DNA of 64,000 nucleotides from a bacterium (GTDB lineage: Bacteria; Patescibacteriota; Microgenomatia; Woykebacterales; RBG-16-39-9b), in assembly GCA_030704665.1 (NCBI GenBank), contig JAUYID010000009.1:330460-394459 (forward strand), given 5' to 3'. The notes under the pieces were generated by a model that searched no databases, was not told where the DNA came from, and saw only the letters and a list, made by a program, of their open reading frames with translations. Both the position numbers and the translations under genes were made by a program. Shown piece after piece: positions 16,199 to 63,111 of this stretch; positions within the stretch are counted from its first letter, which is position 1; each line of letters opens with the position of its first letter.

Positions 16199-16203
16199 AA
16201 ACT

Positions 16204-18635: not shown

Positions 18636-18637
18636 AA

Positions 18638-21415: not shown

Positions 21416-21523
21416 GAGACGAGGCGCCCCTTTTTGAACTTCGGTTCGGGGGCGCTTCATCGGCCTTAATATCCTGACAGAGAGACTTGAATTCCCTAGA
21501 TTATTTGTTTAGAATAAATTTTC

Positions 21524-22713: not shown

Positions 22714-23253
22714 TTGATGTCTGACAACGGTTTATTTGGACTACCCAGCTTCCGACGTAGAATTGGAGTAGTCGCCTCTTTGTTCATTCTTTTTGCTATT
22801 CCAGTCACAGTCATTGCCACTTTGCAAGGCCGTTCCGATCTCTCCCGGGCCGCGGCTTGTCTGGATATCAGCAATGACGGTGGCGTTGACTCAGCTGATA
22901 GCAGTCTCTTGAAGAATCAAATTGAGACCAAGATCTATTCAAAGGCAAGCGACTTTGATAGTGATGGGGTGGTAAACGAAACTGACCAGCTGATTCTAAA
23001 CGAAAGTTTGGGCGAAACCTGCTCACCACAAGTAACCTTCTTTGCTAGTCCGGATAGTATCAAGATAGGTGAAAGTGCTGTTTTGACCTGGACGGTTGCT
23101 CACGCGAGCAAAGTCGAGATTGAGGGGGTCGGAGAGGTTGCTAAAGAAGGCGAAATCAAAGTTAACCCAACTGAAAGTAAAACTTACCAATTGAGCGCAA
23201 GCGGCCCCGGTGGGCAAGTAGTTGGGGCCTCAACCCTAAAAGTCACCCATTAA
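22714..23253 (+). CDS. Secreted protein with a dockerin-like double Ca-binding repeat (DISNDGGVDSAD…DFDSDGVVNETD) followed by an Ig-like domain
   Basis: Signal-anchor N-terminus. Both 12-residue loops fit the D-x-[DNS]-x-D-G-x-[VI]-[DN]-x-x-D dockerin/EF-hand-like pattern and are spaced ~29 residues apart. Confidence 0.55.
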   Translation: MMSDNGLFGLPSFRRRIGVVASLFILFAIPVTVIATLQGRSDLSRAAACLDISNDGGVDSADSSLLKNQIETKIYSKASDFDSDGVVNETDQLILNESLGETCSPQVTFFASPDSIKIGESAVLTWTVAHASKVEIEGVGEVAKEGEIKVNPTESKTYQLSASGPGGQVVGASTLKVTH

Positions 23254-23296
23254 TTCTCTTTGACAGGTTAGATCCGTCTTGTTAGCATATTAATTA

Positions 23297-24919: not shown

Positions 24920-24960
24920 GTTTTTGACAAGGGGAAAACCCCCTGCTAGCATGTATTTAA

Positions 24961-30380: not shown

Positions 30381-30926
30381 ATGAATGAACCTGCCCAGGC
30401 TGCTTCGATTGAGCATGGCTTGCCCAAAGGAGCAGAAACAGCTTCAACCTTTTCTACTTCTCTGGAAACAAATCCCCCGCAACCCCAAGTTGAGGTGAGA
30501 CCACAACTAAGCAATGAACAGCAAGAGGCTGACGAAGCACGAAGAATTCAAGAGTTAACCAGCCAAGTTCGTCAAGCTCAAGAACGGACGGAAGAACCAG
30601 TAAATTTTGCTCAGAGCCTCGAAAAAAGAGCTGAGGTACTAAACAAGCAAGCAACTGGTCTGCGGGCAGAACACGAGCCAGTAGACAAAGGACCCAGTGT
30701 CAGTCCAGCCACACACTTCCTTTTGGAGGCGGAAGAAAGAAGAGCCGCTCACTTAGCTGCCTTGGTTGGGGTAGATGCCACCGAGCCAGTCAAGCAAGAG
30801 AAACAAGTGCCCCCTCCGACTCAAGACAGAGGGGAAGCTGCTCCGAGCACCCCAACTAACTTAGAAGATAAAGCTAGAGCACTAGAAGCGCAATTTGAAA
30901 GTGGCGGAGGGCAAAAGGCTGCCTGA
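30381..30926 (+). CDS. Hypothetical Gln/Glu-rich predicted coiled-coil protein, stop overlaps the start of the following ATPase (ATGA)
   Basis: 181-aa ORF, low complexity; translationally coupled to 30926..33418. Confidence 0.5.
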   Translation: MNEPAQAASIEHGLPKGAETASTFSTSLETNPPQPQVEVRPQLSNEQQEADEARRIQELTSQVRQAQERTEEPVNFAQSLEKRAEVLNKQATGLRAEHEPVDKGPSVSPATHFLLEAEERRAAHLAALVGVDATEPVKQEKQVPPPTQDRGEAAPSTPTNLEDKARALEAQFESGGGQKAA

Positions 30927-33418
30927 TGTTTGATTTTACTGTTTACGCACAGACTCCAAATTCTCCTGATCTGGGCCAAAGTCTTTTGGGTTTGACGGTT
31001 TTGGTTTTAAGCCTACTTTTTGGCTTGGTTCTCTTTGCCCTTTTACCCTTTGCTTTTATCCTTTTTCGTCGTTACCAAAAAAGAGAGAAGCGTAGTTGGG
31101 ATTACGTGCTCTTGCAGGTAAAACCGACCAAGTACAACGAAATTAAAATCGAAGCCGCGGAAGCGATGTTCGCTTCTTTCTACGGACTTTTTCGGGCGGG
31201 TGCCCAGGGTTGGATAAAGGGGCAGGATCACATCGGGTTTGAGATTGTTTCCAAAAATGGCGAAATTGTTTTTTATGTTTCTACCCCCAATGAGCTTTCC
31301 GACCTAGTTGAAAAGCAAATCCACAGCTTTTACCCTGAAGCAGAGATTGTCCCAGTTCCGGACTACACAATCTCAACTGGAAAATATACTGATATCGTGG
31401 AGCTGTCTTTAAAGGCCAAAGCTTTCAAGCCAATCCGGCGCTTTAAAGAGTTTGGGGAGGACGTTGACCCGATGAACTCAATCACAACGGCTCTCTCCAA
31501 ACTTGAGCAAGGAGAAGCAGCAGCTTTACAGATACTGATTGCTCCGGCGGGAAGTGGCTGGCAAGGCCGCGGTTTTCGTGAAATTCACAGAGTCCAGACG
31601 AGTGCCTCAAGCTCAATTACTGCCCAAATCGGCAAAAGTATTACCAGCCCCGGGCAACCCCAACAGCCTGATCTACAACAACCCGAGGCTAGAACCAATT
31701 CAGTGACTATGGACCCTTACAAAAAAATTGAAGAAAAATCCTCAAAGCCTGGTTTTGACACCGTGATCCGTTTCGTGGTTTGCGCGAACAACAAATACAA
31801 CGCTGAAGTTTATATCAACAATATGATTGGCTCTTTCGCGCAGTTTGCTGATCCGGTAGGCAACGGTTTTCGGCGCCGTCGTTGGCCTTGGACTCTGACC
31901 AAAAAACAATCTCTTTCTGATTTCGTCAACCACATCATGCCCCTATTTTTTGGCAAAATGATTCTTAATACTGATGAGCTGGCAACAGTTTTTCATTTTC
32001 CCAGCAAAAAGGTCATGACCCCGAACATTATCTGGGCACTAGCCAAAAAATCCGCAGCCCCAACCACCGTTCCTAGCCAAGGTTTGTACCTTGGTAAAAG
32101 TGTCTTTCGGGGAGTGGAAACCCCGATCAGAATTACCGAGGATGATCGCCGTCGCCATACTTACATCATCGGGCAAACCGGTACTGGAAAAAGTGAGCTG
32201 CTCAAGCACCTGGCTTACCAAGACATTGTTGAAGGCAAAGGGGTGGCTTTTATCGATCCTCATGGGAGCGCAATTGAGGATTTGATCAATATGATTCCAG
32301 CTTCTCGAGCCGAAGACGTGATTCTTTTCGACGCGGGCGATACAGAAAGGCCGCTTGGACTCAATATTCTCGAGGGTGAAACTGACGAACAGAAAAACAT
32401 GGTGGTGAACTCTTTTATTGCCTTGCTCTACAAACTCTATGATCCAAAAAAAGTTGGCATCATGGGACCGAGATTGGAGCGGGCCATTCGCAACGTCATG
32501 CTTACGGCTATGGTGGAGAAAGGGAACACTTTGGTAGAAGTTTTGCGCTTGCTCATCGATCCGAAATTTGTTCAGGAGAAACTGCCGCTCATTACCGACC
32601 CCTTAGTACGTAGATATTGGACCGATGAGATCGCTCAAACTTCGGACTTTCATAAAAGCGAAACCATGGGTTACTTCGTTTCCAAATTTGACCGTTTCGT
32701 CACTGACAAACTGTTGCGCAATATTGTCGGTCAAAGTCAATCGGCTTTTGATTTTCGCAAATTGATGGACGAAGGCAAGATTTTGCTTGTTGACCTCTCC
32801 AAAGGAAAAATAGGGGATGAGAATTCCAATTTCTTGGGACTGATCTTAGTTCCAAGAATCCTCATCGCCGCCATGAGCCGGATTGATGTACCTGAGGAGC
32901 AACGCCGTGACTTTTATCTCTACGTGGACGAGTTTCAGAACTTTGCTACTCCTGACTTTGCGGTCATTCTTTCGGAAGCGAGAAAGTATCACCTCAACTT
33001 GACTGTCGCCAACCAGTTTATTGCTCAAATCGAGCAGGATATCAAAGACGCGGTTTTTGGTAACGTTGGAACTACGATTGCCTTCCGAGTCGGTATTGAT
33101 GACGCTACTTACCTGGAACATCAGTTTGAACCGGTTTTCAACAAGCAAGATCTGATCAACAACCCGATCGGGCACGCCTACATTCGCCTGCTCGTCAAGG
33201 GTCAACCGACGCCACCGTTTTCTTTTTCAACTGATTGGAACCAGATTCAGGGAATTGCCAGAAACAAAGAAACCGGCTCGGCCATTGCTGAGCTCTCTCG
33301 ACTCAGATTCGGAAAAGATAAAAATATTGTTGAAGCTGAAATAAATCGGCGGGCGGAGCTGGATAAACCAGTCCCCCTACAAAAACCAAATCCAGAGCCG
33401 ATCACAAAAAATGTTTAG
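30926..33418 (+). CDS. Membrane-anchored FtsK/HerA/VirD4-superfamily P-loop NTPase (type IV coupling-protein-like, TraG-D_C-type C-terminus)
   Basis: N-terminal TM; Walker A YIIGQTGTGKSEL, then AFIDPHGS…VILFDAGD…LGLNIL (coupling-protein-like pattern), Walker B YLYVDEFQNF, then ARKYHLNLTVANQFIAQ…GNVGTTIAFRVGIDDATYL. Paralogue of 59340..62288. Confidence 0.6.
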   Translation: MFDFTVYAQTPNSPDLGQSLLGLTVLVLSLLFGLVLFALLPFAFILFRRYQKREKRSWDYVLLQVKPTKYNEIKIEAAEAMFASFYGLFRAGAQGWIKGQDHIGFEIVSKNGEIVFYVSTPNELSDLVEKQIHSFYPEAEIVPVPDYTISTGKYTDIVELSLKAKAFKPIRRFKEFGEDVDPMNSITTALSKLEQGEAAALQILIAPAGSGWQGRGFREIHRVQTSASSSITAQIGKSITSPGQPQQPDLQQPEARTNSVTMDPYKKIEEKSSKPGFDTVIRFVVCANNKYNAEVYINNMIGSFAQFADPVGNGFRRRRWPWTLTKKQSLSDFVNHIMPLFFGKMILNTDELATVFHFPSKKVMTPNIIWALAKKSAAPTTVPSQGLYLGKSVFRGVETPIRITEDDRRRHTYIIGQTGTGKSELLKHLAYQDIVEGKGVAFIDPHGSAIEDLINMIPASRAEDVILFDAGDTERPLGLNILEGETDEQKNMVVNSFIALLYKLYDPKKVGIMGPRLERAIRNVMLTAMVEKGNTLVEVLRLLIDPKFVQEKLPLITDPLVRRYWTDEIAQTSDFHKSETMGYFVSKFDRFVTDKLLRNIVGQSQSAFDFRKLMDEGKILLVDLSKGKIGDENSNFLGLILVPRILIAAMSRIDVPEEQRRDFYLYVDEFQNFATPDFAVILSEARKYHLNLTVANQFIAQIEQDIKDAVFGNVGTTIAFRVGIDDATYLEHQFEPVFNKQDLINNPIGHAYIRLLVKGQPTPPFSFSTDWNQIQGIARNKETGSAIAELSRLRFGKDKNIVEAEINRRAELDKPVPLQKPNPEPITKNV

Positions 33419-33446: not shown

Positions 33447-36422
33447 ATGTTAAACCCTGAATCATTCCGACCAGACCTGGCCCCTCAAAGTGGTGAGGGC
33501 GGTGCTTCTGGTGGGAAAGAAGTTTCTTTAGATGCGGCAAAGTTTACAGCCTGGAAAGAAAGGTACGAGGGGGGAAAATCCTTCACCAAGAAAGATGTAG
33601 CTAGCATGGCTAGTTATGTCTCTCGAAGTGGTGGTACTGGTGAACCCGGAGCACCAAACCCAAACGATTTGGACCCGCGTCGACTCTTTGAAAAAATTGT
33701 TGAGAGAACAGAAAAAGAAGAGGGTAGCCCTACAAGAATTTCTTTTAGGGAAGAGGCGGTTGCACAGGATTCAGATGAGACTAGACCAGCTACTGAGGAG
33801 GATTTAGAAAGACTAGCCAAAAATGGAATTGGAGGGCTGCGCGAGGAGGAGTCTCCAAGTCCTCTCGACACAAGTCGCCCACCCGTTGAGCTCGAGGATG
33901 CTTCCCAAGGTCGAGCTCCAGCAGCAGAAGATGTCGATGAAACTGAAGAAGAGCCACAGGGTGGCGTGGTTAAGCAACCTTCCCAAGGTCGTGGCAGAGC
34001 GAGAAGAGCTGATGAGGCTGATCTAGAAGCTGGACAGCCAGGAGGACGAACCCACCGAGCACCGAGAATTCCAGCCCCACCTGAACCACCAGTCGAAGCC
34101 AATGCTGGTGCGGTAGGACCACCTCCAATTGACCGCCAACCTCCAGCTCCACCTGCTCCTGAAGATGATGAGCGGAGACAAGAAACTACTGCGACTACAC
34201 CGCCTGCGCTTCCTAGAGTTGAACAGAGCCAGCCTGATCCGGAAGACCTAGAAAGACACCAACAAGGTCTAAAGACTTACGGAGATTTGAAATTTGGTGC
34301 TGAGTTTCAGTCAGTTGATGGTAGAAATTTTAAAGTAATGGAAACAAAGTTTGTTGATGTTAGTAAGGAAGAAGCAGAAAGACTCCATAGTATAGAAGTA
34401 GAGAAGGGTTTGAGGGGAGTATGGGAAGAAAAGCCAGGGGTACAAATAGAGCTTGCTTTGGGAGAAGAAGGTGGGAAGCAAAGCCGTCATCGCTACGATG
34501 CTAGGGTTGACGGAAATGAGTCGATGAGAGAACTACTAGGTATCAGCGCTCTTGATCATCAGGGAAGAAGAACCGCCGCAGTAGGTGAGCCAAGACAAGA
34601 GCAACCACCTGGGCCGCCAGGACCACCGTCCCGAGTGCGGGTTGTCCCGCCTCCCGAGACTCAACCACAGGCCCCTCAACTAGAAGAGCGGCTACCACCT
34701 CTCTTGGCGAGATTTGATTATACCCAACTGAGCGAAGTCGAAAAAGCTGACAAAGTCGAAGAATTCCGGCAAAGAATTCAGGCAGTGGAAGAAGAAACCA
34801 GAGAACTGCAACCAGGCGATAAAGATGCAATTGTTGACCTGAAGCGAGACTTTCTTCGGGGTGGAGGAGAAATGTTTTGGGCCAGGCCACTAAATCAAGA
34901 GGGACATTGGGGGGACACCCCAAATGAGGCAGCACGAGATTTTGTTAGTTACCTTGGACAGGGAGGCATTTTTACTGATGGGGTAAATACCTACCGAGTT
35001 AACGAGCTTATTCTTACGGGTAGTGACTTGAGTTCGTTGACTCCGGAGCAATTAGAGGCTCTTCGGGAGGATGTAAATCTTTTCGGTTACCGAGCGGTTT
35101 TACATGCGTTTCCGGGTAAGTCTATCAGCGTCCAGTACGCGGTCAGTAATGCAGAAGACCAAGAGCAGGTTTTTCCTCGGAAAGACGTAGTTGGAGCCGT
35201 GCGAGGAACATTTTCTAGAACTGCCGCCCAAACAGCTGCGGAAACCGGAGTTGGTGGAGTAGCAGCGGGAACTGGACCGACTGGAACCGAAACTGGTGGA
35301 GGAGGAATTCCACCGGAAACTCCACCGACGACAACGGCAGGTGGGCCTGAAGGGGAGCCGCCTTCAGAGCGAACGAAGCAAGCTTATGACGCGCTTCTCA
35401 AAGAAGCTCTTGAGGACCTCTCCCGGCGCGGAGTGGGGGCAGGAGCGGAAAGAGAGCCTATCAGCGAAGATTTGTTCAAACGAATTTTGCAAGTACAGAA
35501 TTTTTATTTAGCCAATCACCGTCCTGAAGTTTTCAAAGATCCGAACTTTAACCCGCTGGAAGACCCGGTCATTCAAGCGATCATGACTTTGCGGCAGCGG
35601 GAGAGCTTTGGTTCAGGACAGAACCTGGTGCGAGCGATTTTGATGCTTGAAGGTATGAAGAGTGACGCCATCGGTACCGGAGGAGAGGGAGGAAAAGTCA
35701 GCCCAACCCAGCAGGATCGTTTGAACGAGCTCAACAACCTTCAAAAAGAACTGGAGAAGAATTTGCGCGCTGAGCCACGACGGGGCCTCGTCAAGAGCAT
35801 GGCTGAGTTGATGAGAAGGGCCAACCCACTCAAATGGCGGGAGATTGGAGTCGAAAGAAGATTTCAGAGGGCAGCAGCTTTTGGTTTTGATTACGATCTT
35901 TTGCAGGTGCTCGAAAAGGCTGACTATTCCAGAGAGAGAATTGATGACACACTAAAAAGAAACCTGACTAAGTGGGAAGATGAGCTGATTGCTGCTAGAG
36001 CAGCCGGTTCCGCTCCACTCCCGGTTGCAGCCGAAACTAACGCACAAAGTTCAGGAACGCAAACTGGGGGAGGGAGCGAAACCACTTCCAGCCCTGAGGC
36101 GGCAGCGGCGGCCAAGACTGCCGCAAGTGCTTTTGCTCTTGAGCTGATGAGGACTTGGTTGCGAACCGGCGGAAAAATGTCGCAAAAGGAGATGAATGGT
36201 TTGCTGACTAGGGGAGTAGCCATCTTGGCGGGAGCAGCCAACACCAATCCAGCCCTGGCACCACTTTTCCAAGAGCTTTCAGCAGAGTCACAGGAAAAAG
36301 GTAGGAGAATTGCTTTCTGGCGCTTTGGCAAAAAAGCAGCGGCGACAACTGGTATACTTATGTTAATTACGGTTGCGGTGATCGGTTTAACCAGCTATGA
36401 GGCCTTTCAACAAAAACAATGA
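33447..36422 (+). CDS. Giant (991 aa) Pro/Glu/Gly/Arg-rich, largely disordered protein with a C-terminal TM tail-anchor; GC-rich coding
   Basis: Long uninterrupted frame; low-complexity PAPPAP, GGxGG and acidic tracts interspersed with short globular-looking segments. C-terminal GILMLITVAVIGLTSY. Confidence 0.55.
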   Translation: MLNPESFRPDLAPQSGEGGASGGKEVSLDAAKFTAWKERYEGGKSFTKKDVASMASYVSRSGGTGEPGAPNPNDLDPRRLFEKIVERTEKEEGSPTRISFREEAVAQDSDETRPATEEDLERLAKNGIGGLREEESPSPLDTSRPPVELEDASQGRAPAAEDVDETEEEPQGGVVKQPSQGRGRARRADEADLEAGQPGGRTHRAPRIPAPPEPPVEANAGAVGPPPIDRQPPAPPAPEDDERRQETTATTPPALPRVEQSQPDPEDLERHQQGLKTYGDLKFGAEFQSVDGRNFKVMETKFVDVSKEEAERLHSIEVEKGLRGVWEEKPGVQIELALGEEGGKQSRHRYDARVDGNESMRELLGISALDHQGRRTAAVGEPRQEQPPGPPGPPSRVRVVPPPETQPQAPQLEERLPPLLARFDYTQLSEVEKADKVEEFRQRIQAVEEETRELQPGDKDAIVDLKRDFLRGGGEMFWARPLNQEGHWGDTPNEAARDFVSYLGQGGIFTDGVNTYRVNELILTGSDLSSLTPEQLEALREDVNLFGYRAVLHAFPGKSISVQYAVSNAEDQEQVFPRKDVVGAVRGTFSRTAAQTAAETGVGGVAAGTGPTGTETGGGGIPPETPPTTTAGGPEGEPPSERTKQAYDALLKEALEDLSRRGVGAGAEREPISEDLFKRILQVQNFYLANHRPEVFKDPNFNPLEDPVIQAIMTLRQRESFGSGQNLVRAILMLEGMKSDAIGTGGEGGKVSPTQQDRLNELNNLQKELEKNLRAEPRRGLVKSMAELMRRANPLKWREIGVERRFQRAAAFGFDYDLLQVLEKADYSRERIDDTLKRNLTKWEDELIAARAAGSAPLPVAAETNAQSSGTQTGGGSETTSSPEAAAAAKTAASAFALELMRTWLRTGGKMSQKEMNGLLTRGVAILAGAANTNPALAPLFQELSAESQEKGRRIAFWRFGKKAAATTGILMLITVAVIGLTSYEAFQQKQ

Positions 36423-36850: not shown

Positions 36851-37450
36851 ATGGATACTTCCCTAGGCCAAAGAATTCAGGACTTCATCCTGTCTTTGGT
36901 GGGAGTTCGGCCTGAACTGGTCAAACACTTGCAGGAGGCCGCGGATGGGGATCAGGGTGAGGTCATGAAGATCTCACGGGCGATTTCCGCCATCGACAAT
37001 ACCTCCGAGCTTCCGCAGCGTTTCGAGGCACTTTCGCCGAAGGTTCGTTTAGCTTTGGAATTCGCGGATGCATCTGCGACAGTTCGAGCAGATCTGGATT
37101 CGGCAGACGAATCGGTTCCAGATTCGCGTGGGCGTCCTCAAAAAGCAGCTGCGAAGAAGACCGCCCGCAAGACCGCCAAGAAGACGCCGAAGAAGGCGCG
37201 CAAGGCGGCCAAGAAGAAGACTGCGGCGAAGAAGACTGGGACACGCAAGAAGGCAGCGAAGAAAACCGCTGGCAAGCGTGCTGCCGGGGAGACTGCGTCC
37301 AAGAAAGCGGCGAGCAAGGGCAAAGTCGACCCCGACACTCGGGTCAAGATCGCGGCGGACTTGAAGAATGGTCACTCGCCGAAAGATATCGCCGCTCGCT
37401 ATGGGGTCACGGGTCAGGCTGTCGGCAACGTCAAGCGTTTTGGACCCTAG
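36851..37450 (+). CDS. GC-rich (~62%) DNA-binding protein: N-terminal domain, histone-H1/HU-tail-like (A/K)KKT(A) repeat tract, C-terminal helix-turn-helix
   Basis: KKAAAKKTARKTAKKTPKKARKAAKKKTAAKKTGTRKKAAKKTAGKRAAG… then GHSPKDIAARYGVTGQAVGNVKRF (HTH). K is encoded by AAG and A by GCC/GCG, unlike native genes. Own promoter TTGACA-17-TGtGATATAT and downstream terminator. Confidence 0.6.
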   Translation: MDTSLGQRIQDFILSLVGVRPELVKHLQEAADGDQGEVMKISRAISAIDNTSELPQRFEALSPKVRLALEFADASATVRADLDSADESVPDSRGRPQKAAAKKTARKTAKKTPKKARKAAKKKTAAKKTGTRKKAAKKTAGKRAAGETASKKAASKGKVDPDTRVKIAADLKNGHSPKDIAARYGVTGQAVGNVKRFGP

Positions 37451-38855: not shown

Positions 38856-40970
38856 TTAGACAGCGATCTCTACTCCTTCCCGTTTGTTCGATCTGTCGCT
38901 TTCCCGGATCAATTCGATCAGCTCATCTACCTCCCATCTGCTACCGTAGCGTTGAGAGAGACGGATCATCAGGGTTTTGGCAGTGTTGTCGAGCACTTCT
39001 CCGTTCTTTTCCGCTTCTCGTGCTTTCCCGAGCTCTTCAAAGGCAGTGGGTAGAAGCTTCGGGACAAGACCTGCTGGGATACCGCAGCGGTTGTCGATCA
39101 GACGAGCATTGAAGGTCAAGTCGCGGTTGACGACACTGGCTAGAAGAAGTTCCCAACTCGAGGTTGTGAACTTGAACGGAGGTTTGTTGCTCGGCTTGGC
39201 ACCATTGGCCCCGACTAGCAATGGGATCGAGCTGATCGTGGGCGTCTGACCTTTGGGGGTCAGATGGATGATGACCTCAGCGATACTTCCAAAGGTCCCA
39301 AGCCATTGGGTCCTAAAGCTATCCAGGAATTGCGAAAATTCCGGAGAAGTGCTCAAGGATGGATCATACAGGGCGTCATTTACCTTCCTCACCACCGAGT
39401 TTAGGTACATATTCGCATCGTCCGGCTTGGTGGGCCCACCTACTGCTTGAGACAGTTGGTACGGGTTCAGGTTTTTTCGGGTAAGAAAGGCAAAGCGCGC
39501 AATCTTGAGCTCTTCGGCGCTGAAGTTCAGATCAAAGCCTGAGGCCGCGACTTCTTCTTCTTCTTCTTCCTCGTCTGCCTCCCCAGGATCTTTACTCTCA
39601 GCAGATAATCGAGCTGCGGCCGCTGCCTGCTCCCTTTCTCTCTCAAAGTCCTCAAACCCAACTGAGTTTGCCCTAACTCTTGGTACTTCCCTGGGATCAG
39701 CTGTGCCTCGGGTGAAGCGCGTGGCGAAAGCTTCAAGAGAAGAGAAGCGGACGGTCTCTCCGAATTTCTCGCGGATATCGGAGAAAAGAGTGCGAGTGGC
39801 TGCATCAAGTGATTCTTCGAGCGTGCCCCACACATGAACCATTTTCTTGATAGCTTGGTCTCGATTGATCCGGGCTGTACCGCGTGACCAACCGAATTTT
39901 TCGTCGATCCCTGACAGAGTAGTAGTGGTTGAGACGAGGAGAACCTCCCGCATTGTCTCAACCTCACGCCCGGTCAGGCTCTTCGAAGAGTCGGTTCGTT
40001 GCCTTGACGCAGGTTGTGATCGGGGAGTAGCCGGTGTAGCAAGGGTTCGCCTACTCAGAGGTGGAGACGGTGGTCTCTGAACCGGTTCTTGCGAAACGGA
40101 AACAGAAGCGGCCATTTCCTCCGTGTCTTCGTTATCACCCCGAATACCCCCTTCCGAGGGAAAAGGAAGAGCTACTCTGTCCAGAATGTCGGGAAAGGTC
40201 TGCCTGAGTTTGGAGATCAGATCCTCTCGGCTGCTTACTCCCAAGACGCGCATGACGTTAAGGATGATGCTCCCAACTGCCAGCACGGATCTACCGGTTT
40301 GCTCGGCGATCTCAGCGTTTTCCAAACCCGCAACGATGAGTTGTGCGACTTCCCATTCTTGGGCGGCTAGAGTCTTGCCGTAGAAGACATGAGAGAGCTT
40401 GGGTTCGGTCGAAGTAGAGGGCTCAGCTGTTCCTTGAGCGTTCTTCGAACCCTTGGGTCGACCGGCTCGTCTGGCCTGAACGACCGGAAGGGTTGCTTCG
40501 GCTTTGGGTTCTGTCGAAGCAGGAGTTGGCGTTTGTTCTGGCTCTGGGTCAGCAGATGGGACTTCCTTCACCGCCGAAGGCTTATCGGCTCGAAGAGCCT
40601 TTTTGGCGGGCTGAAGTCTTTGCTGTTCCTGCCTAGGAGCCTTCAAAACCTTGCCTTCTCGGACCAGCGGCCGTAGTCTGTGGTAGAAGAGCAGCTCGGT
40701 AGAGAGTTGCGCTCCGGACAGTCCGTCTGGGTTGCGTAGAGCCGTTTCAAGGCTAGCCTGGAAAAGCTCATCAGCTTGGTCAGGGTGTTTGCCGAGCCGC
40801 GTCAAGAGACGTTTGCGTTCCCGCAGACGCTCCAGACAAGCCTGATCTGGATTGGCCTTTCTTTTCTCCTGTTTCTCTGCCTCAGAGAGGAAGCTGAGAA
40901 GGGCATTTGCAGCAGTTCTGAACTCAATACTGGTCATGGGGTCTCCCTCCCTTTCATTTCCAGAATCCAT
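38856..40970 (-). CDS. GC-rich (~55%) large regulatory protein with AT-hook (RRAGRPKGSKN), LuxR/GerE-type HTH (EWEVAQLIVAGLENAEIAEQTGRSV…) and an uncharacterised ~300-aa C-terminal domain
   Basis: 704-aa ORF (likely start at the second Met, MTSIEF). Motifs read from the translation; acidic EEEEEE tract. Composition unlike the neighbouring hisS. Confidence 0.5.
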   Translation of the reverse strand: MDSGNEREGDPMTSIEFRTAANALLSFLSEAEKQEKRKANPDQACLERLRERKRLLTRLGKHPDQADELFQASLETALRNPDGLSGAQLSTELLFYHRLRPLVREGKVLKAPRQEQQRLQPAKKALRADKPSAVKEVPSADPEPEQTPTPASTEPKAEATLPVVQARRAGRPKGSKNAQGTAEPSTSTEPKLSHVFYGKTLAAQEWEVAQLIVAGLENAEIAEQTGRSVLAVGSIILNVMRVLGVSSREDLISKLRQTFPDILDRVALPFPSEGGIRGDNEDTEEMAASVSVSQEPVQRPPSPPLSRRTLATPATPRSQPASRQRTDSSKSLTGREVETMREVLLVSTTTTLSGIDEKFGWSRGTARINRDQAIKKMVHVWGTLEESLDAATRTLFSDIREKFGETVRFSSLEAFATRFTRGTADPREVPRVRANSVGFEDFEREREQAAAAARLSAESKDPGEADEEEEEEEVAASGFDLNFSAEELKIARFAFLTRKNLNPYQLSQAVGGPTKPDDANMYLNSVVRKVNDALYDPSLSTSPEFSQFLDSFRTQWLGTFGSIAEVIIHLTPKGQTPTISSIPLLVGANGAKPSNKPPFKFTTSSWELLLASVVNRDLTFNARLIDNRCGIPAGLVPKLLPTAFEELGKAREAEKNGEVLDNTAKTLMIRLSQRYGSRWEVDELIELIRESDRSNKREGVEIAV

Positions 40971-58043: not shown

Positions 58044-59063
58044 GTGGAAAACTCTCCCAGCGAAAAAAATTTAAAATCAGTAAACCCGGTTAGAAATAGG
58101 AAAAAAATCTATTGGCGGGTCTTTCTTTTTATTATCCTGATCTTTTTCTTGGCCAATCTGGTTCTGCAGGTACTGCGTTTGGTTGGGGCGATCCAGAAGC
58201 CCTTTCCCTCTTTGGCAGGTGCTTTTGCCAGTGAAAAAAGACTCGATCTAAAACAGAAATCGAATCTTTTGCTTCTGAGGTATTCTGCGGAGAAGACCCT
58301 ACAAGAAAGCTGGGTATTAAGCTACGAGAACTCCTCAAGGCAGCTCCACTTCTTCAAACTTCCTCACCAAGCTTCTTTAGCAAATGAGGAAAAGAGTTTG
58401 AGTGAGGTTTTTTCCGCAAGTTTCGACCAAAACTTCTGGCTCAGCGCCAACCTGATTGGTGCACCGCTCGATGGTTATCTGGCCTTTCGAGATCTTGAAG
58501 CGTTCTCAAAAGAGGCCTTCTTAGAATCGAGAAGGGAACTTTTCTCTTTATCCTTCTTTTTCAATTTTTTTGGACAAAAGGCTTGGCTTGATCAGCACCT
58601 TGCGACGAACCTGTCTAGCAGCCAACTGATCGGTGTCGCTCGAATTTTTAAAGCAGTCAGTCTGGACAAAATAGATTTTACTGATTTGTCCGGTTTCGCC
58701 GAAAAAGGAGTTGTCGAAGCAGAGAAGATTGATCGGGAAATCGGCTCTTTATTGATTGATCCGGACATCGCAGAGGAAAATTCCTTAGTAAAGATTGTCA
58801 ACGGTAGTGGGGTTGCTGGGTTAGGCAGCAACTTAAAACGGATTGTAACTAATTTGGGTGGAAGATCTTTGACAGTTGAGTCCGGTAATGAAAAAATGAC
58901 AAAAGTTTTGGCGGTTGATGAAGACAGCAAGCTAGCCAGAAGAATAGCGGGATTTTTGGGAGTTGGGGTAAGCAAAACAAACCAAACCTCTGAAGCCGAG
59001 GTGGAGATATTTCTAGGTTCAGATTTGGCTGAAAGACTAAGCCTAGCTAGCCTCAAGAAGTAA
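58044..59063 (+). CDS. LytR-CpsA-Psr (LCP)-like cell-envelope protein with C-terminal LytR_C domain
   Basis: N-terminal TM, degenerate LCP core, C-terminal VKIVNGSGVAGLGSNLKRIVTNLGGRSL typical of LytR_C. Confidence 0.5.
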   Translation: MENSPSEKNLKSVNPVRNRKKIYWRVFLFIILIFFLANLVLQVLRLVGAIQKPFPSLAGAFASEKRLDLKQKSNLLLLRYSAEKTLQESWVLSYENSSRQLHFFKLPHQASLANEEKSLSEVFSASFDQNFWLSANLIGAPLDGYLAFRDLEAFSKEAFLESRRELFSLSFFFNFFGQKAWLDQHLATNLSSSQLIGVARIFKAVSLDKIDFTDLSGFAEKGVVEAEKIDREIGSLLIDPDIAEENSLVKIVNGSGVAGLGSNLKRIVTNLGGRSLTVESGNEKMTKVLAVDEDSKLARRIAGFLGVGVSKTNQTSEAEVEIFLGSDLAERLSLASLKK

Positions 59064-59073: not shown

Positions 59074-59191
59074 TTGACTTTTTGAGCTCTTTGTGGTAGT
59101 ATATTAAACGATCTCTCTCCTTTCTTCCGAGGAGGGGCCAAAATAGCCTCTCCTAATTTGAGAAAACCCCTTCGGGGGTTTTCTCGTTTTT
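59074..59191 (+). ncRNA. Candidate small RNA: promoter TTGACT-17-TAGTAT, ~80-nt transcript with internal hairpin GGAGGGGC/GCCUCUCC and intrinsic terminator AAAACCCC-ttcg-GGGGTTTTCTCGTTTTT
   Basis: All elements read directly. A second promoter (TTGACT-16-TAAAAT) further downstream likely serves the 982-aa ATPase gene, so the short transcript would be independent. Confidence 0.4.
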
Positions 59192-59339
59192 AGAGGCAAA
59201 AAACTCGAAATTTTTCTGAAGCTGAGACAAAGACTTTCAAGATTGACTCCGAACGTGATTTAGGTTAAAATCCTTCTCATGAGGAGAAAAATAAAAAGGG
59301 AGGGTCGCCTGTCAGCTTGGCAGGGAAAGAGACAATAAA

Positions 59340-62288
59340 ATGGCTCCATTGTACTTTCTTGCGATCATAGTGATTTTGGCGATTTGTTTCTTCTTTGCTT
59401 GGAGAGCGGCGCGCAGAATTGAGATTGGTGACCGCAAGTCGCAAATACAACAAGGTATTCTACTTTCAATCCAACTCCCAAAAGAAAACGAAAAACTTCC
59501 GGTGGCGGCCGAACAGATGTTCGCGTCTCTTCATGGTTTGTTACGGTTTACCCCGGATGCCCAAGAGCATATTTCTTTGGAAATGGCTTCGTCGGTGGAT
59601 GGTTTACGATTTTATGTCTATACTCCAACTGAGTTTAAAAGTTTTGTTGAGAGTCAAATTTACGCTCAATACCCAACTGCTGAAATTCGCGAGGCTGTCG
59701 ACTACACCAAAAGTATCGGGGACAACTCCCACGTGGCGGCTTCTGAGATAACTTTAAGCAAAGACTTCATTTTTCCCATTAAAACTTTCCGAGATTTTGA
59801 AGTTGATCCGCTCGCAGCGATTACAAGTGCCCTTTCTTCCTTGGGAAATAGTGAGCAACTTTGGTTACAAATACTAGTTCGTCCTGTTGATGACTTTTGG
59901 CAGGACCGCGGCCATGAATACGTAAAACTAGTTAGAGAAGGAACTCACCCGGTTAGTATCAACCCACAAGACATAATTATTGATGTTGGAAAACAAATAG
60001 TTTCTGTTGGAGCGAATATTTTCCCTTATATCGCCAAAGGCCCAACTCCAGTCGACCCTCATCCCGGGCCGGTCCGGACACCACCGCCTCCAAGGCTCTC
60101 CGCCGGCCAAGAACTCGAGCTCAAAATGATTGAAAACAAACTTTCTAAGATAGGTTTTGAGACCAAAATACGAGCTGTGGCTGTAGCGCAAAGTGAAGAT
60201 TCCGCCCGCCAAAAACTAGGAGGAATACTTGGCGCCTTTAAGCAGTTTACGACGGCAAATTTGAACGGGTTTATAGCTGACTCAGATTCTCCTTCCTCCT
60301 CTGCTGTTGTCACCAGTTTTCAACAGCGCTCTTTCCCAGAGAAAGAGAGTGGAGACTTTATTCTTGACATTGAGGAGTTGGCCTCTATTTTCCACTTACC
60401 GAACTTGTCAGTTGAAACCCCGACTATTTCTTGGACCCGAGCCAAGAAGGGGGAGCCACCACTCAACCTCCCAACAGAAAACGCTACTCTCTTGGGAGAG
60501 ACTATGTACCGCGACTTAAGTACTAGATTTGGAATCAAAAAAGCAGATCGTCGCAAACACATGTACTTAATCGGAAAAACTGGAGTAGGGAAGTCCACCC
60601 TGATCAAAAATATGATCATTCAGGATATGCGTAATGGTGAAGGTGTTGCAGTCTTGGATCCTCACGGGCAACTTATAGAGGAACTTTTGGAATTTGTACC
60701 GGAAAATCGAATTGATGACGTCGTTATTTTCAACCCAGCCGATGCAGATTATCCGGTCTCTCTCAACATGTTGGAGATGGTGGATCCAAGACAACGAACC
60801 TTAATGGCCGACTCCTTGGTTGATGTCTTTAAAAAATACTTTGCGAACTCTTGGGGACCGCGACTTGAGTATATTTTAAAAAACTGTATTTTGACCCTTC
60901 TTGAGGTTCCGAATACTTCTTTGCTTTCAATTACTCGGCTTTTGACCGATAAAGACTATCGGAAATTTATCGTTGATAAAATTAATGATCCGCAGATGAA
61001 AGCTTTTTGGAGGGACGAGTACGCTCGGATGGAGCAAAACGAAAGATTAATTACTGAGGCTATCAGTCCGATTCAAAATAAAGTAGGGCAGTTTTTAAAT
61101 TCAGAGTTAATCCGCAACATTGTGGGACAAGCCAAGAGTACAATTAAAGTCGACGATATCATTAACAGACGCAAGCTGTTTTTTGTAAACCTAGCCTCGG
61201 GTCGTATTGGAGCCAACAACACGTCTTTGTTGGGAGCGATGATTGTTTCCCAGCTTCAATTTGCAGCCATGCGACGGGTTGATATTCCAGAACAGCAACG
61301 AGTCGATTTCTTTCTTTATGCCGACGAGTTTCAGAGCTTTGCGACTGAGAGTTTTGCCGTTATTCTTTCTGAAGCACGTAAATACCGCCTAGATTTGACT
61401 ATTACCCATCAATATATTGAACAAATGCCTGAAGAAGTGCGCGACGCCATTTTTGGTAACGTTGGTACCTTGATTTGTTTTGGGGTAGGAAATCAAGACG
61501 CTCATTTCCTTGAGAGAGAGTTTTCTCCAGTTTTTTTGGAAAACGACTTTATCAACTTGGGTCGTTTTGAAATGTATTTAAAACTTCAGATTGATGATTT
61601 TTCCTCAACACCGTTTTCGGCCCGCTCTCTGGCTCCTTATACTGATGCAACCAACCTTCACGAGCGAGCGGTTCAGATTTCCAGAATGAACTATTCCAGA
61701 CCAGTTGAGAGGGTAGAGAAGATGATTAAAAAATGGACTGAAACCAAGTTTCGTCTTGGCCAGCCGCCACTTCTTCCGGCCTGGGCAGTTGAGGAGGAAA
61801 AGCAAGCTCTTATTTCCGGACGGGAAATAGACTCTCCGGTTGAAGGAGAAGTTATCCCAACCCTAGAAACTACCACTCCTCCAACGGAACAATCTTTATC
61901 GATCCCGGTTCCTTTGCAAGAACAGCAGGTTAGACTAGAGACGATTCCTGAAACGGGGCCGCTGGGCGTTCCTGAAGTTTCTCAGACACCAGTTTCTGAA
62001 CCAGCGGTGAGTCCACCACTGCCCGTAAGCGAACTAGCTGATTCGGACCAAGAAGAAAAAGTCGAAAAGGCTCCGTCCGTGGGGGCCCAAGTCTCTCAAA
62101 CCAACTTAGAACCTCAGCTCCCAGCGCCTGCAGATCTAGCACCGCCTGTTTTTTCGCGGGAAAATACTGGCCTTGGTTTAGGACAGAGCGTTGGTTCAAG
62201 TGGTGAAGTGGAAATCTTTCGTTTTCCTATCCAACAACCAAGCCAAAAAGAATCAGAGTCAGGCGAAATTTTGATGCCGAGAAGATAA
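59340..62288 (+). CDS. Second membrane-anchored VirD4/TraG/FtsK-HerA-like P-loop NTPase (paralogue of 30926..33418) with a ~180-aa Pro/Glu-rich C-terminal tail
   Basis: Walker A MYLIGKTGVGKSTL; VAVLDPHGQ…VVIFNPADADYPVSLNML; Walker B FFLYADEFQSF; ARKYRLDLTITHQYIEQ…GNVGTLICFGVGNQDAHFL; N-terminal TM. Confidence 0.6.
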   Translation: MAPLYFLAIIVILAICFFFAWRAARRIEIGDRKSQIQQGILLSIQLPKENEKLPVAAEQMFASLHGLLRFTPDAQEHISLEMASSVDGLRFYVYTPTEFKSFVESQIYAQYPTAEIREAVDYTKSIGDNSHVAASEITLSKDFIFPIKTFRDFEVDPLAAITSALSSLGNSEQLWLQILVRPVDDFWQDRGHEYVKLVREGTHPVSINPQDIIIDVGKQIVSVGANIFPYIAKGPTPVDPHPGPVRTPPPPRLSAGQELELKMIENKLSKIGFETKIRAVAVAQSEDSARQKLGGILGAFKQFTTANLNGFIADSDSPSSSAVVTSFQQRSFPEKESGDFILDIEELASIFHLPNLSVETPTISWTRAKKGEPPLNLPTENATLLGETMYRDLSTRFGIKKADRRKHMYLIGKTGVGKSTLIKNMIIQDMRNGEGVAVLDPHGQLIEELLEFVPENRIDDVVIFNPADADYPVSLNMLEMVDPRQRTLMADSLVDVFKKYFANSWGPRLEYILKNCILTLLEVPNTSLLSITRLLTDKDYRKFIVDKINDPQMKAFWRDEYARMEQNERLITEAISPIQNKVGQFLNSELIRNIVGQAKSTIKVDDIINRRKLFFVNLASGRIGANNTSLLGAMIVSQLQFAAMRRVDIPEQQRVDFFLYADEFQSFATESFAVILSEARKYRLDLTITHQYIEQMPEEVRDAIFGNVGTLICFGVGNQDAHFLEREFSPVFLENDFINLGRFEMYLKLQIDDFSSTPFSARSLAPYTDATNLHERAVQISRMNYSRPVERVEKMIKKWTETKFRLGQPPLLPAWAVEEEKQALISGREIDSPVEGEVIPTLETTTPPTEQSLSIPVPLQEQQVRLETIPETGPLGVPEVSQTPVSEPAVSPPLPVSELADSDQEEKVEKAPSVGAQVSQTNLEPQLPAPADLAPPVFSRENTGLGLGQSVGSSGEVEIFRFPIQQPSQKESESGEILMPRR

Positions 62289-62328
62289 CTTTAATAAAAT
62301 ACAAAGCGCCAAACTATAAGGAGGTAAA

Positions 62329-63111
62329 ATGGCCAAAAACAACAATAAATTTGATTTGATCAGACAAGCCTTGGGGTCAGCCGAGTCCAGTATCAAGCTA
62401 GCCAAGCAGCTCTTGGAGGAACTGGAAAGCCCTTCCGCTGGTAGCCACCACCAAAAGACAAACCCTAGCAAAGAATTGCCGGGTGTAGTTGGTATTTTTG
62501 ATGGCGAAAAGATGGTCGCTGAGAGTGGGGAAAGCTTTCCCGTGGCAGAAAACTATGCCTCCAAAAGTTTATTGGTTGCTGGGGACACTCTAAAATTGGT
62601 GGAGGAGGGGGGAGAAAAGAGGTTTAAACAAATTGAACACGTAAAAAGACACAAATCAGTTGGTATTCTTACCAAAAAGGATGGAAAATGGAGGGTCGTC
62701 ACTTCAGAAGGATCCTACAAAGTTTTGCCCGCAGCGGTGACTCATTTTGACGGTGAGGTTGGGGACGAAGTCAGTTTACATTTACCAGCAACCAACCTCT
62801 CGACCTCCTTTGGTGCGATAGAATCGATAAGTAAAAAATCCACGAGCGTTTCTGAAGCCCCTCCCGTACCAGAAGACATTGTTTCACAGCAGAGTAAGCA
62901 AAAGGTTCATAATGAGCCAAGGAAAAAGCCAGGCAAGCCAAAACCGTCTGGTACCAAAAAAGAAATTGCCAAGGAGACAAGCAAAAAAGAAGCTCCCAAA
63001 AAAGAAATAGAGTACAAAGAGGTTGAAATAGCTCAGGCAACAGTACCAAAGGCAGAAAAGGTTGAACTCCCACCAGTCAAAGAAGTCGTCGATGAGGACG
63101 AGTTGACTTAG
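62329..63111 (+). CDS. Hypothetical protein with globular N-terminal half and Lys/Pro/Glu-rich low-complexity C-terminus
   Basis: 260-aa ORF immediately downstream of the second ATPase, with an AGGAGG SD. Confidence 0.5.
   Translation: MAKNNNKFDLIRQALGSAESSIKLAKQLLEELESPSAGSHHQKTNPSKELPGVVGIFDGEKMVAESGESFPVAENYASKSLLVAGDTLKLVEEGGEKRFKQIEHVKRHKSVGILTKKDGKWRVVTSEGSYKVLPAAVTHFDGEVGDEVSLHLPATNLSTSFGAIESISKKSTSVSEAPPVPEDIVSQQSKQKVHNEPRKKPGKPKPSGTKKEIAKETSKKEAPKKEIEYKEVEIAQATVPKAEKVELPPVKEVVDEDELT

Follow-up and report, generated by a model that had tools for sequence, protein, structure and literature searches.

Organization of the par2 locus

The window (here, the whole stretch of 64,000 nt of DNA that was analysed) contains at 59340..62288 an ORF with an ATG start, par2, coding for a 982-aa membrane-anchored protein in which a DUF8128 domain is joined to a VirD4/TrwB-type coupling ATPase. 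The bacterium is an ultrasmall member of CPR/Patescibacteria, and ATPases of this type are motors that bring DNA or proteins to type IV secretion systems (T4SS). After a gap of 40 nt there is a second ORF with an ATG start (62329..63111), coding for the 260-aa partner of par2, that we call p260. These features, and all those described below for par2, p260, the paralogue par1 and their neighbours, are on the forward strand. Upstream from par2, at 58044..59063, lies the gene of a 339-aa LCP-like membrane protein with a Pfam LytR_C domain. In Woykebacteria, CPR3 and Dojkabacteria this gene is conserved next to par2 on its 5′ side, and LCP-like homologues precede par2 in loci L082-L085, L093, L094 and L002-5/L023.

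Between the LCP-like gene and par2, a consensus scan (the only method used for these signals) found a terminator-like hairpin, with a 12-bp stem and then a T run (59159..59186), and a promoter-like sequence, TTGACT-17-TAAAAT (59243..59271), 69 nt 5′ of the par2 start codon. The LCP-like gene is probably transcribed separately from par2, and the promoter-like site, together with the 40-nt gap, suggests that par2 and p260 form a bicistronic unit.

Domain architecture of par2

The only N-terminal hydrophobic segment of par2 (aa 1-27, 59340..59420) corresponds to a transmembrane anchor in the hydropathy scan and to a helix at residues 2-29 in the AlphaFold2 model, and is followed by the sequence RAARR. 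Because of these basic residues after the anchor helix, the positive-inside rule would put the remainder of the protein on the cytoplasmic side. The N-terminal alpha/beta domain (~aa 35-381, 59442..60482) is the Pfam domain DUF8128 (PF26449), for which a precomputed Pfam match exists for par2 itself and for all the listed homologues. Its coordinates in par2 were derived from the AlphaFold2 model, with strands and helices at residues 39-350, and from natural gene splits, which fall at query residue 381/383 both in loci of Parcubacteria type and in one haloarchaeal plasmid.

The motor (aa 383-804, 60486..61751) was delimited by means of profiles, the AlphaFold2 model and motifs. It is a RecA-like P-loop motor, in which Walker A (GKTGVGKS, aa 412-419, 60573..60596) and Walker B (FFLYADEF, aa 657-664, 61308..61331) are both intact, and residues K413, T414, G415, G417, K418, D662 and E663 are invariant in 57 par2 orthologues. 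AlphaFold2 confidently folds aa 1-830, and the nucleotide-binding domain with its inserted all-alpha domain has a fold match to TrwB.

par2 scores above the Pfam cut-offs for TrwB_AAD_bind (PF10412; 45.7 bits, cut-off 20.5) and T4SS-DNA_transf (PF02534; 27.7 bits, cut-off 20.1). It is far under the NCBIfam equivalog cut-offs (46.8 vs 250 bits for conju_CD1115 and 36.5 vs 366 bits for SXT_TraD), hence we considered it a divergent branch that is the equivalog of no curated T4CP. The structures used for comparison were 1E9R (TrwB), 7OVB (DotL) and 8DOL (Cag-beta) for T4CPs, and 4AG5 and 7O42 for VirB4. VirB4 was also considered as an identity for par2 and was rejected, since the sequence profiles favour T4CP families. 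Precisely, the only VirB4-type NCBIfam match of par2 was VirB4_plasma (21.1 bits, cut-off 590), and TIGR00929 (VirB4_CagE) matched par1 only (26.1 bits, cut-off 643). Full-length TrwK/VirB4 aligns to the motor only, over 323 residues, so the N-domains are not superposable.

The layout of par2 is also similar to that of FtsK, with its membrane anchor, its Pro-rich stretch of low complexity and a RecA-like motor from the FtsK-HerA superfamily, and among the genes near par2 in several loci are RuvC, XerC/D-like integrases, dcw genes and FtsB/FtsE. par2 did not show the FtsK_SpoIIIE motor profile together with the gamma (KOPS-binding) domain, and we regard it as highly improbable that it works as an FtsK-like translocase for chromosome segregation or dimer resolution at the division septum.

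The initial annotation had described a Pro/Glu/Ser-rich extension of ~180 aa on this ATPase, and we found it at aa 805-982 (178 aa, 61752..62285), with 15% P, 13% E, 10% S and 10% L, a net charge of -17 and a disordered model (AlphaFold2 pLDDT <50 across aa 832-982). Among par2 orthologues the length of the tail goes from 14 to 213 aa. The ortholog alignment contains a short linear motif, GEVEIFRFP (aa 955-963, 62202..62228), in which E956 is nearly invariant and which follows in the orthologues the pattern GE[VI]x[IF]..FP. A weaker second copy, GEILMP, lies at 62262..62279, and par2-clade proteins throughout CPR carry a related pattern, [EP]G[EQ]x[IV]x[FIL], at their terminus.

The partner protein p260

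The downstream protein had been described as Lys/Pro-rich with a disordered tail. The tail, rich in Lys, Glu and Pro, is there; the protein is not merely Lys/Pro-rich, as residues 1-170 are the folded and conserved part of the family. This part comprises an N-terminal long helix (aa 4-33, 62338..62427), seen in the AlphaFold2 model and conserved as IDLIRQALxAAESSIKLA+QLL, and a tandem beta-barrel domain of probable OB or cold-shock-like type (aa 50-170, 62476..62838), modelled by AlphaFold2 with pLDDT >90. It is followed by a variable Lys/Glu/Pro linker (aa 171-254) and an acidic C-terminal tip (62839..63108 as a whole), defined by composition and by the AlphaFold2 model, the conserved tip itself being DEDELT at 63091..63108. 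Residues 171-260 contain 19% K, 17% E and 12% P and were modelled with low confidence (means of ten-residue blocks between 49 and 62), with pLDDT <50 in short segments only (173-177, 216-220 and 226-228). Across the family the terminal E[DE]ELT is kept and the linker is not.

We counted 328 homologues of p260 and, at 50% identity, 1,071 representatives; the protein has no match in Pfam or NCBIfam. The conserved residues Y76, K79, K89, F99, K100, K106, R107 and Y130 are aromatic or basic and, as far as sequence can tell, compatible with nucleic-acid binding. On the basis of the model, p260 is probably a tandem OB-like, SSB-like protein, a predicted nucleic-acid binder.

As regards the linkage of par2 to its downstream gene, for which co-occurrence had been proposed as a check, p260 is directly 3′ of par2 in all the eight relatives examined in its own clade (L001, L082-L085 and L092-L094), three of which are reverse look-ups starting from p260, and at least 31 contigs are apparently common to the par2 and p260 match lists. 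Other arrangements are par1, p260, HTH protein and par2, in this order, in L024, L057 and L079, and a divergent orientation of p260 and par2 in L066 and L011.

The paralogue par1 and the ancient duplication

At 30926..33418 the window carries par1, an 830-aa protein with DUF8128 and coupling-type ATPase and without the long tail, which is missing also from most par1 orthologues. The two ATPases had been described as paralogues with shared motifs and N-terminal membrane anchor, and BLASTP bears this out (E 4e-151; 777 aa, of which 36% are identical and 54% positive). The alignment goes from residues 4/23 to 760/766 of par2/par1, and takes in the hydrophobic N-terminal segment, the N-domain and the entire motor. 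par1 has a single N-terminal hydrophobic segment (aa 15-50), Walker A GQTGTGKS (aa 416) and Walker B FYLYVDEF (aa 663).

Both alignment and phylogeny, the checks proposed for the age of the duplication, indicate that it is ancient. Homologues fall into two clades, in each of which identity to the clade's reference is 54% or more, against 39% or less to the reference of the other clade, and in a neighbour-joining (NJ) tree, built without bootstrap support, par1 and par2 are each monophyletic, with the plasmid and phage outgroups outside both. On sequence grounds, par1 and par2 are two ancient clades spanning CPR classes, and nearly all CPR bacteria carry both copies. In the relatives they occur on the same contigs, and the relatives are not single-copy genomes without a linked gene. 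Moreover, of 80 unrelated CPR loci, six (L006, L019, L024, L048, L057 and L079) have par1 and par2 no more than 10 kb apart. The two genes are adjacent in two of these loci, have one to four genes between them, a p260 homologue included, in three others, and six genes in the last one.

The initial annotation had interpreted the two copies, each paired with a different disordered partner, as specialised, substrate-specific translocation units and not as one housekeeping DNA pump. In this case, two independent protein translocation units would each export the neighbouring low-complexity or disordered protein. T4CPs are able to recruit protein effectors, as established for VirD4 and DotL, and the disordered tails of par2 and p260, with their conserved terminal peptides, could be signals. 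Acidic low-complexity ORFs do flank par1, both in the window, where a 181-aa ORF has its stop overlapping the par1 start (30381..30926) and a 991-aa ORF with a C-terminal hydrophobic anchor lies 3′ of par1 (33447..36422), and in L024, L057 and L079. However, the 181-aa sequence is not conserved, and neither of the two ORFs of the window has a detectable homologue, even next to a 67%-identical par1 orthologue. The pairing as proposed holds for neither locus, since p260 is a conserved, folded, probably OB-like protein, in which the tail is the variable part, and the par1 neighbours are without detectable homologues. In addition, the conserved neighbour of par2 in most CPR is a DNA-binding HTH protein, and the recurrent closeness of par1 and par2 means that the loci are not obviously independent. 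We hence consider this explanation unlikely, and the interpretation in the initial annotation as a whole partly supported.

Gene neighbourhoods and possible link to the T4SS

par2 orthologues are vertically inherited within a housekeeping gene order (LCP-like gene, par2, p260, YebC, RuvC), and Woykebacteria, CPR3 and Dojkabacteria have the flanking synteny in common. In most of the remaining CPR lineages, the position directly 5′ of par2 is taken by an HTH protein gene with Sigma70_r4 and HARE-HTH matches (34 loci), which fits a nucleic-acid-related cargo or a regulator.

In core Microgenomates (L030 and L050) the par2 orthologues, which in the NJ tree are sister to the par2 group of the window, CPR3 and Dojkabacteria, are head-to-head with a full T4SS cluster, consisting of PrgI/VirB3-like, VirB4-like (P-loop_TraG/AAA_10), M23 hydrolase and VirB6/TrbL genes and a T4SS_pilin array. 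This adjacency was present in two of six short-type par2 loci; three of the other four have little or no upstream sequence on the contig, and in the full 10-kb upstream flank of L078 a VirB4-like gene was not detected. No T4SS gene was found in the 64-kb window by Pfam and tblastn, and the ORFs of the window that were scanned with Pfam contain no relaxase domain.

Outside CPR, the nearest relatives are plasmid-borne in haloarchaea, Sulfolobus, Streptomyces and Bacillus, or are encoded by jumbo phages of Bacillus. A homologue with DUF8128 and ATPase on a Natrinema plasmid has a VirB4-like gene and a pilin as neighbours, and another, in Bacillus phage G, adjoins the 'VirB-like' gp155. Given these relatives, the par2 locus could be taken for what is left of an integrated conjugative element or a prophage. 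This is effectively refuted by the conserved chromosomal synteny of the flanks; furthermore, the similarity patterns of par1 and par2 each track the organismal lineages, the GC content of the locus (0.43-0.45 in 2-kb windows) is inside the range of the window (0.41-0.51), and no integrase, relaxase or repeat boundary was found near the locus.

The passages of PMC12102498 (Quinonero-Coronel et al. 2025) on Patescibacteria report 5,713 VirD4-type homologues in 2,918 of 3,035 genomes, only 148 of them near virB4 and nearly all far away, VirB4 in 2,417 genomes, and relaxases as rare. According to the same passages and to PMC10633639, a T4CP homologue of Southlakia epibionticum is non-essential whereas its T4SS is essential, for which reason the authors of PMC12102498 were unable to rule out exaptation.

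An explanation to which we give a rather low probability is that par1, par2 and their partners are an exapted CPR-specific membrane pump, which moves DNA or RNA for a core purpose (uptake or export, recombination-linked processing) without a VirB4 apparatus. Such a pump agrees with T4CP homologues being in more genomes than VirB4 and almost never adjoining it, as in the passages above, and with par1 and par2 being near-universal, vertical, close together in the six loci listed and in housekeeping surroundings (RuvC/RuvA/RuvB/YebC, SecD/SecF, the dcw cluster and ribosomal genes), with probable OB-fold and HTH proteins as partners. Against it, par2 orthologues adjoin a complete T4SS cluster in L030 and L050, a single TM helix in each subunit offers no evident channel, and the incompleteness of MAGs could account for many genomes with T4CP and without VirB4. 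Besides, distance between T4CP and virB4 is frequent even in ordinary conjugative systems, as stated in PMC12102498.

Proposed role of par2 and p260

The explanation that we consider best, with about an even chance of being right, is that VirD4/TrwB-type T4CPs form a pair throughout CPR, of which par2 is the one at locus 2, lying here away from T4SS genes and probably co-transcribed with p260. par2 would form a hexameric ring at the membrane and, driven by ATP, recruit its substrate and feed it to the chromosomal CPR T4SS. The conserved partners, p260 and the HTH protein, are of predicted nucleic-acid-binding types, which points towards nucleic acid as a candidate substrate. By analogy with SSB or with the DNA-binding accessory proteins beside coupling proteins (TrwA, TraM), the predicted OB barrels of p260 may bind single-stranded nucleic acid or a nucleoprotein cargo, and its acidic tip may dock on a partner. 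The C-terminal tail of TraD binds TraM, and the par2 tail motif could likewise be a second docking peptide. par1 would be an ancient paralogue that probably acts in the same pathway, and not in an unrelated unit, since both genes are repeatedly close together.

A more novel reading, that we put forward only tentatively and judge rather improbable, is that par1, par2 and p260 or the HTH protein make up a CPR-wide machine uncoupled from conjugation, which moves nucleic acid or nucleoprotein between epibiont and host or across its own membrane; the paralogues would be a single hetero-oligomeric or sequential motor and the tail peptides its docking code. If true, this would be a previously unrecognised route of nucleotide or genetic exchange in bacteria unable to make nucleotides.

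Patescibacteria are a large share of bacterial diversity and live on other cells. Their T4SS is essential in the one species tested genetically, and the role of the about two T4CP homologues per genome is posed as an explicit question in PMC12102498, which this locus breaks down into parts open to test. Rather than being scattered at random, the homologues form two orthologous groups of ancient origin, and the par2 group has a gene-order tie to the T4SS in a sister lineage, a conserved docking-type peptide on its disordered tail and a conserved, probably nucleic-acid-binding partner of SSB-like layout. Should p260 turn out to bind nucleic acid and to dock on the ATPase, nucleic acid could still be a load of the 'relaxase-less' CPR T4SS, and this would bear on how CPR auxotrophs get nucleotides or exchange genes. 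If not, what the locus encodes is simply a coupling protein, divergent yet of an ordinary sort, plus an accessory protein.

Comparison with known systems

The ATPase family is already known, having been annotated and, in 2025, counted in Patescibacteria. par1 and par2 are probably the same proteins as the homologues of PMC12102498, which are likewise VirD4-type HMM matches, about two per genome and mostly not near virB4. The passages of that paper on these homologues count them, and describe neither the paralogue clades and their mutual linkage nor DUF8128, the motif at the C-terminus or the partners of OB-like and HTH type.

With respect to VirD4/TrwB/TraD T4CPs, par2 has one TM helix, whereas TrwB has two, and a DUF8128 domain of ~350 aa between anchor and motor. 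The par family is chromosomal and vertically inherited, with two ancient paralogues per genome, usually far from virB4 and with no relaxase, and the partner of par2 is probably a tandem OB-like protein, whereas the T4CP accessory is a ribbon-helix-helix protein. As for VirB4, in L030 the CPR VirB4-like protein is encoded by a gene separate from par2. FtsK/SpoIIIE and the T7SS proteins EccC/EssC share with par2 the superfamily, being membrane-anchored translocases with low-complexity regions, and EccC recognises C-terminal peptides of its substrates.

A canonical SSB is encoded elsewhere in the window (15641..16198). p260 resembles SSB in its probable OB-like barrels, in a linker that is variable and biased in composition, and in an acidic peptide conserved at the C-terminus. 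They differ in that p260 has two predicted cold-shock/S1-like barrels behind a long helix, has no sequence similarity to the SSB Pfam family and ends with E[DE]ELT, whereas the SSB tip is DDDIPF.

Two paralogous membrane ATPases

We compared the 982-aa ATPase of locus 2 (par2, an ATG ORF at 59340..62288 on the forward strand) with its 830-aa paralogue of locus 1 (par1, an ORF at 30926..33418, forward strand). The two proteins share 36% identity over 777 aligned residues (BLASTP, E 4e-151), in an alignment that begins in the N-terminal hydrophobic segment and takes in the whole motor. The Walker A (GKTGVGKS in par2 and GQTGTGKS in par1) and Walker B (FFLYADEF and FYLYVDEF, respectively) motifs are intact in both, and each protein has a single N-terminal hydrophobic stretch, so the common motif series and N-terminal TM reported for the two ATPases in the initial annotation were borne out. 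The same holds for the Pro/Glu/Ser-rich C-terminal extension of par2 (15% Pro, 13% Glu and 10% Ser in aa 805-982). Precisely, in an AlphaFold2 model obtained with 57 orthologues as input (mean pLDDT 78.7), residues 1-830 are folded and residues 832-982 have a pLDDT <50.

Residues ~400-720 of par2 scored above the gathering cut-offs of three Pfam families, TrwB_AAD_bind (45.7 bits), T4SS-DNA_transf and DUF87, and the N-terminal region corresponds to PF26449 (DUF8128) in precomputed annotation. The NCBIfam matches (VirD4 of the CD1115 family, TraD, CedD and VirB4) were all sub-threshold, and a profile search against PDB sequences retrieved TrwB and DotL. On the basis of these results we assign par2 to the motors of the VirB4/VirD4 branch, with the profiles favouring the coupling-protein (VirD4/TrwB) side. 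The protein combines a single TM helix with an additional alpha/beta domain of ~350 aa, whose boundary at about residue 381/383 is confirmed by naturally split genes: the DUF8128 and ATPase parts are separate neighbouring genes in ~40 Parcubacteria-type loci and in one haloarchaeal plasmid.

Genomic setting of par2

The DNA of the window is chromosomal and of CPR/Patescibacteria type, and its nearest homologues carry the labels Candidatus Woykebacteria and CPR3. The locus lies among housekeeping genes (HisRS, DnaB, EF-P, RF1, PrmC, L31, Lgt, RluD, a Kef-type antiporter, SSB and YchF), the GC content of the par2 locus lies inside the window-wide range, and the whole 64-kb window yielded no gene for VirB4, VirB6, a pilin or a relaxase. 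Between the upstream LytR_C gene and par2, consensus scans alone gave a terminator-like hairpin (59159..59186) and a promoter-like site (59243..59271). Together with the gap of 40 nt between par2 and the downstream 260-aa gene (p260, 62329..63111, forward strand), these scan matches suggest that the two genes may form a two-gene transcript.

In Dojkabacteria (L002-L005, L023) the order RluD / LytR_C protein / par2 / YebC / RuvC / RuvA / RuvB is conserved; the lineage of the window has kept this gene frame, in which par2 is followed by two insertions, p260 and a TPR gene. Elsewhere in the window, the gene of ribosomal protein L31 (28894..29346) encodes an acidic N-terminal extension of ~60 aa (Pfam L31 covers aa 62-115 of 150), and its start codon may be over-called. 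The only domain recognised in a 704-aa protein (38856..40970, reverse strand) is a single GerE/LuxR-type HTH at aa 199-252. A run of genes at 22714..27242 encodes Dockerin_1 (22714..23253, 24961..26301) and Cohesin (26298..27242) domains, is kept in a Woykebacteria relative (L086, 4094..6948) and suggests that this ultrasmall bacterium has a surface scaffold resembling a cellulosome.

The DUF8128 and ATPase architecture is also found on haloarchaeal, Sulfolobus, Streptomyces and Bacillus plasmids and in Bacillus jumbo phages (Foldseek E 5e-47 over 886 columns for phage G gp156). The homologue of a Natrinema plasmid adjoins a VirB4-like gene and a pilin, and gp156 adjoins the 'VirB-like' gp155. 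In the phage G record (L090, 4240..8382 for gp155-gp156), gp156 is mis-annotated as 'MsbA-like permease', and its VirB-like neighbour is a second ATPase; full-length DUF8128 and coupling-type ATPases also occur in the Bacillus/Geobacillus phages JL, 0305phi8-36, TP-84 and SPO1-like Goe16. All the plasmid and phage homologues found are distant (<33% identity), and the top plasmid match, on Priestia megaterium pFDU301A, is unannotated and uninformative, with the gene apparently broken into ORFs of 534 and 159 aa. We rejected a mobile-element origin of the locus because, besides this distance, its synteny is chromosomal; that par2 is the remnant of such an element is extremely improbable.

Age of the duplication and linkage of the paralogues

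The 120 best matches of each paralogue formed two non-overlapping sets, with ≥54% identity to their own reference and ≤39% to the other. We also built an NJ tree from 401 motor-domain columns of 109 sequences, covering 80 loci across many CPR classes plus representatives. In this tree, computed without bootstrap and with distant outgroups, 73/73 par2-type and 34/34 par1-type sequences fell in separate clades, with the Natrinema plasmid T4CP and phage G gp156 outside both. The close (Woykebacteria) relatives were not part of the 80-locus CPR set and were added by exact-protein look-ups. Both genes are present in CPR3 and share contigs in relatives (size-matched: 938369, 99571, 56938, 586188, 532215, 131449); in a Woykebacteria MAG a single contig carries the two at a distance of 21.6 kb, and the genes between them match those of the window. 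The identity sets, the clades and the presence of both copies in relatives support an ancient duplication; whether it was ancient had been asked in the initial annotation. According to a T4SS survey (PMC12102498), Patescibacteria have 5,713 VirD4-type homologues in 2,918 of 3,035 genomes, about two per genome, with which our two-clade result agrees; only 148 of the 5,713 are near virB4.

Among the matches listed, par1 and par2 are within 10 kb of each other in 6 of the 80 unrelated CPR loci. They are directly tandem in L006 and L048 and six genes apart in L019; in L024 and L079 the order is par1 / p260 homologue / Sigma70_r4+HARE-HTH protein / par2, as in L057, where two ORFs also separate par1 from the p260 homologue. 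The 26 kb between the paralogues in the window are hence one arrangement among several, and the two separate translocation units envisaged at the outset are probably not independent, since these six loci carry both genes.

Partners of the two ATPases

The p260 family comprises 328 close homologues and 1,071 representatives at 50% identity, and no model in Pfam or NCBIfam matched it. Its description as a Lys/Pro-rich protein held for the composition of aa 171-260 (19% Lys, 17% Glu, 12% Pro) and has to be corrected for the first 170 residues, which are folded and conserved. These comprise an N-terminal helix (IDLIRQAL.AAESSIKLA.QLL) and a domain rich in beta structure, in which the motifs NYASKS, GD.LKL, FKQ and KR are invariant. 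The Lys/Glu/Pro linker is variable in length and sequence, and the last five residues are again conserved (E-[DE]-E-L-T).

The gene follows par2 directly in the window, and so it does in all the clade relatives examined, both those reached from the ATPase (L082-L085) and those reached, free of query bias, from p260 (L092-L094). The pairing of this ATPase with its downstream gene held, and the match lists of the two proteins have at least 31 contigs in common (size-matched). In Berkelbacteria-type loci p260 is one gene upstream of par2, with an HTH gene between; L066 has it in divergent orientation to the HTH-par2 operon, and L011 has a partial copy at the contig end in the same orientation. 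It is absent within 10 kb in most Parcubacteria loci, and an HMM of its N-domain run on all ORFs of L001-L081 revealed no hidden divergent copies beyond the six loci found by BLAST. In Parcubacteria, a ~350-aa Sigma70_r4 + HARE-HTH protein, often preceded by SecD/SecF, is encoded immediately upstream of par2 in 34 loci; this partner was not found in the window. From the domain and linkage of p260 and from the Sigma70_r4/HARE-HTH neighbour, both recurrent partners of par2 are predicted to be of nucleic-acid-binding types.

For par1, we dropped the idea of a conserved disordered partner, because the flanking low-complexity ORFs of 991 and 181 aa had no significant homologue in related loci by tblastn, blastp or phmmer --max, not even in the Woykebacteria locus L086, whose par1 orthologue is 67% identical. 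What recurs around par1 is only a tendency of position: its start tends to be abutted by a small ORF, and L024, L057 and L079 encode acidic proteins close by. The pairing in the initial annotation, with a different disordered partner for each copy, holds at neither locus as stated, the par2 partner having a folded, conserved part and par1 no conserved partner, and we regard its protein-substrate model as rather unlikely.

A small ORF rich in Pro, Ala and Gln runs up to the par1 start in L035, L037, L038, L041, L045, L046, L052, L055, L069 and L072. These ORFs have in common a basic amphipathic helix of the W(L/W)A....(L/I)K type at the C terminus; the 181-aa ORF of the window (30381..30926) is without it. 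Just 3' of the 991-aa gene, a 199-aa ORF (36851..37450) has a weak, sub-threshold match to the histone-H1-like nucleoprotein HC2.

Link to type IV secretion

In two core Microgenomates loci (L030, L050), tail-less par2-type genes of 729-737 aa are head-to-head with a T4SS cluster encoding a PrgI (VirB3-like) fusion, a VirB4-like ATPase (P-loop_TraG, AAA_10), an M23 peptidase, TrbL/VirB6 and a T4SS_pilin array. These clusters are complete, with 3-5 tandem T4SS_pilin paralogues (L030 5831..9888 and 17991..21900; L050 5677..9721 and 15678..19449); both records are labelled 'uncultured Gammaproteobacteria' and have a CPR-like gene content. In the NJ tree their genes are sister to the par2 group of the window, CPR3 and Dojkabacteria. 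This position and the T4SS adjacency, the strongest contextual argument, argue for par2 being a true coupling protein, its gene having moved away from virB4 as T4CP genes commonly do (PMC12102498).

The main rival is that par2 is an exapted nucleic-acid pump independent of any T4SS. According to published work, T4CP homologues are more widespread than VirB4 and almost never adjoin it (PMC12102498), and one such homologue is reported as dispensable in Southlakia, where the T4SS is essential (PMC12102498, PMC10633639). Weighing these points with the L030 and L050 clusters, we give this reading a minor though real chance. An FtsK-like role, or the replacement of FtsK, was down-weighted because TM7x has its own annotated ftsK, and is very unlikely.

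The ATPase family is already annotated and surveyed in aggregate. The term DUF8128 was not found in the full texts searched, and the survey, in its available part, only counts these homologues (PMC12102498); we therefore found no published description, within these sources, of the two-clade structure, the paralogue linkage, the T4SS adjacency of par2 orthologues, the conserved tail peptide or the SSB-like tandem-OB partner. The locus is not in itself surprising; it offers a concrete, testable handle on the question of the CPR coupling homologues.

The par2 tail and the proposed mechanism

Among par2 orthologues the tail is 14-213 aa long and not conserved in sequence, except for a short motif near its end. 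This motif reads GEVEIFRFP (aa 955-963) in the par2 of the window, and relatives have GE[VI]x[IF]..FP or GEIVFP. Across Parcubacteria and Berkelbacteria, par2-type proteins end in a related [EP]G[EQ]x[IV]x[FIL], and most par1 orthologues stop at the folded domain. In several Parcubacteria-type lineages the tail is not purely disordered and has a Cys4 zinc-ribbon-like motif, CxxCG..VPF.P....P.YC..C, in the C-terminal ~70 aa (L013, L014, L028, L047, L064, L077).

Alongside the family assignment, architecture, paralogy, synteny, partner conservation and predicted fold established here, we propose that par2 would be a hexameric membrane motor, acting as the coupling protein of a chromosomal CPR T4SS. 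The p260 protein would bind single-stranded nucleic acid or nucleoprotein cargo and use its acidic tip for docking, a second docking peptide may be the motif in the par2 tail, and par1 would act in the same pathway as par2. Taken as a whole, we consider this proposal evenly poised between right and wrong. The F-plasmid TraD binds TraM through a disordered extension that ends in a docking peptide. Like TraD, par2 has a disordered extension with a conserved terminal peptide, known here from sequence and from the model.
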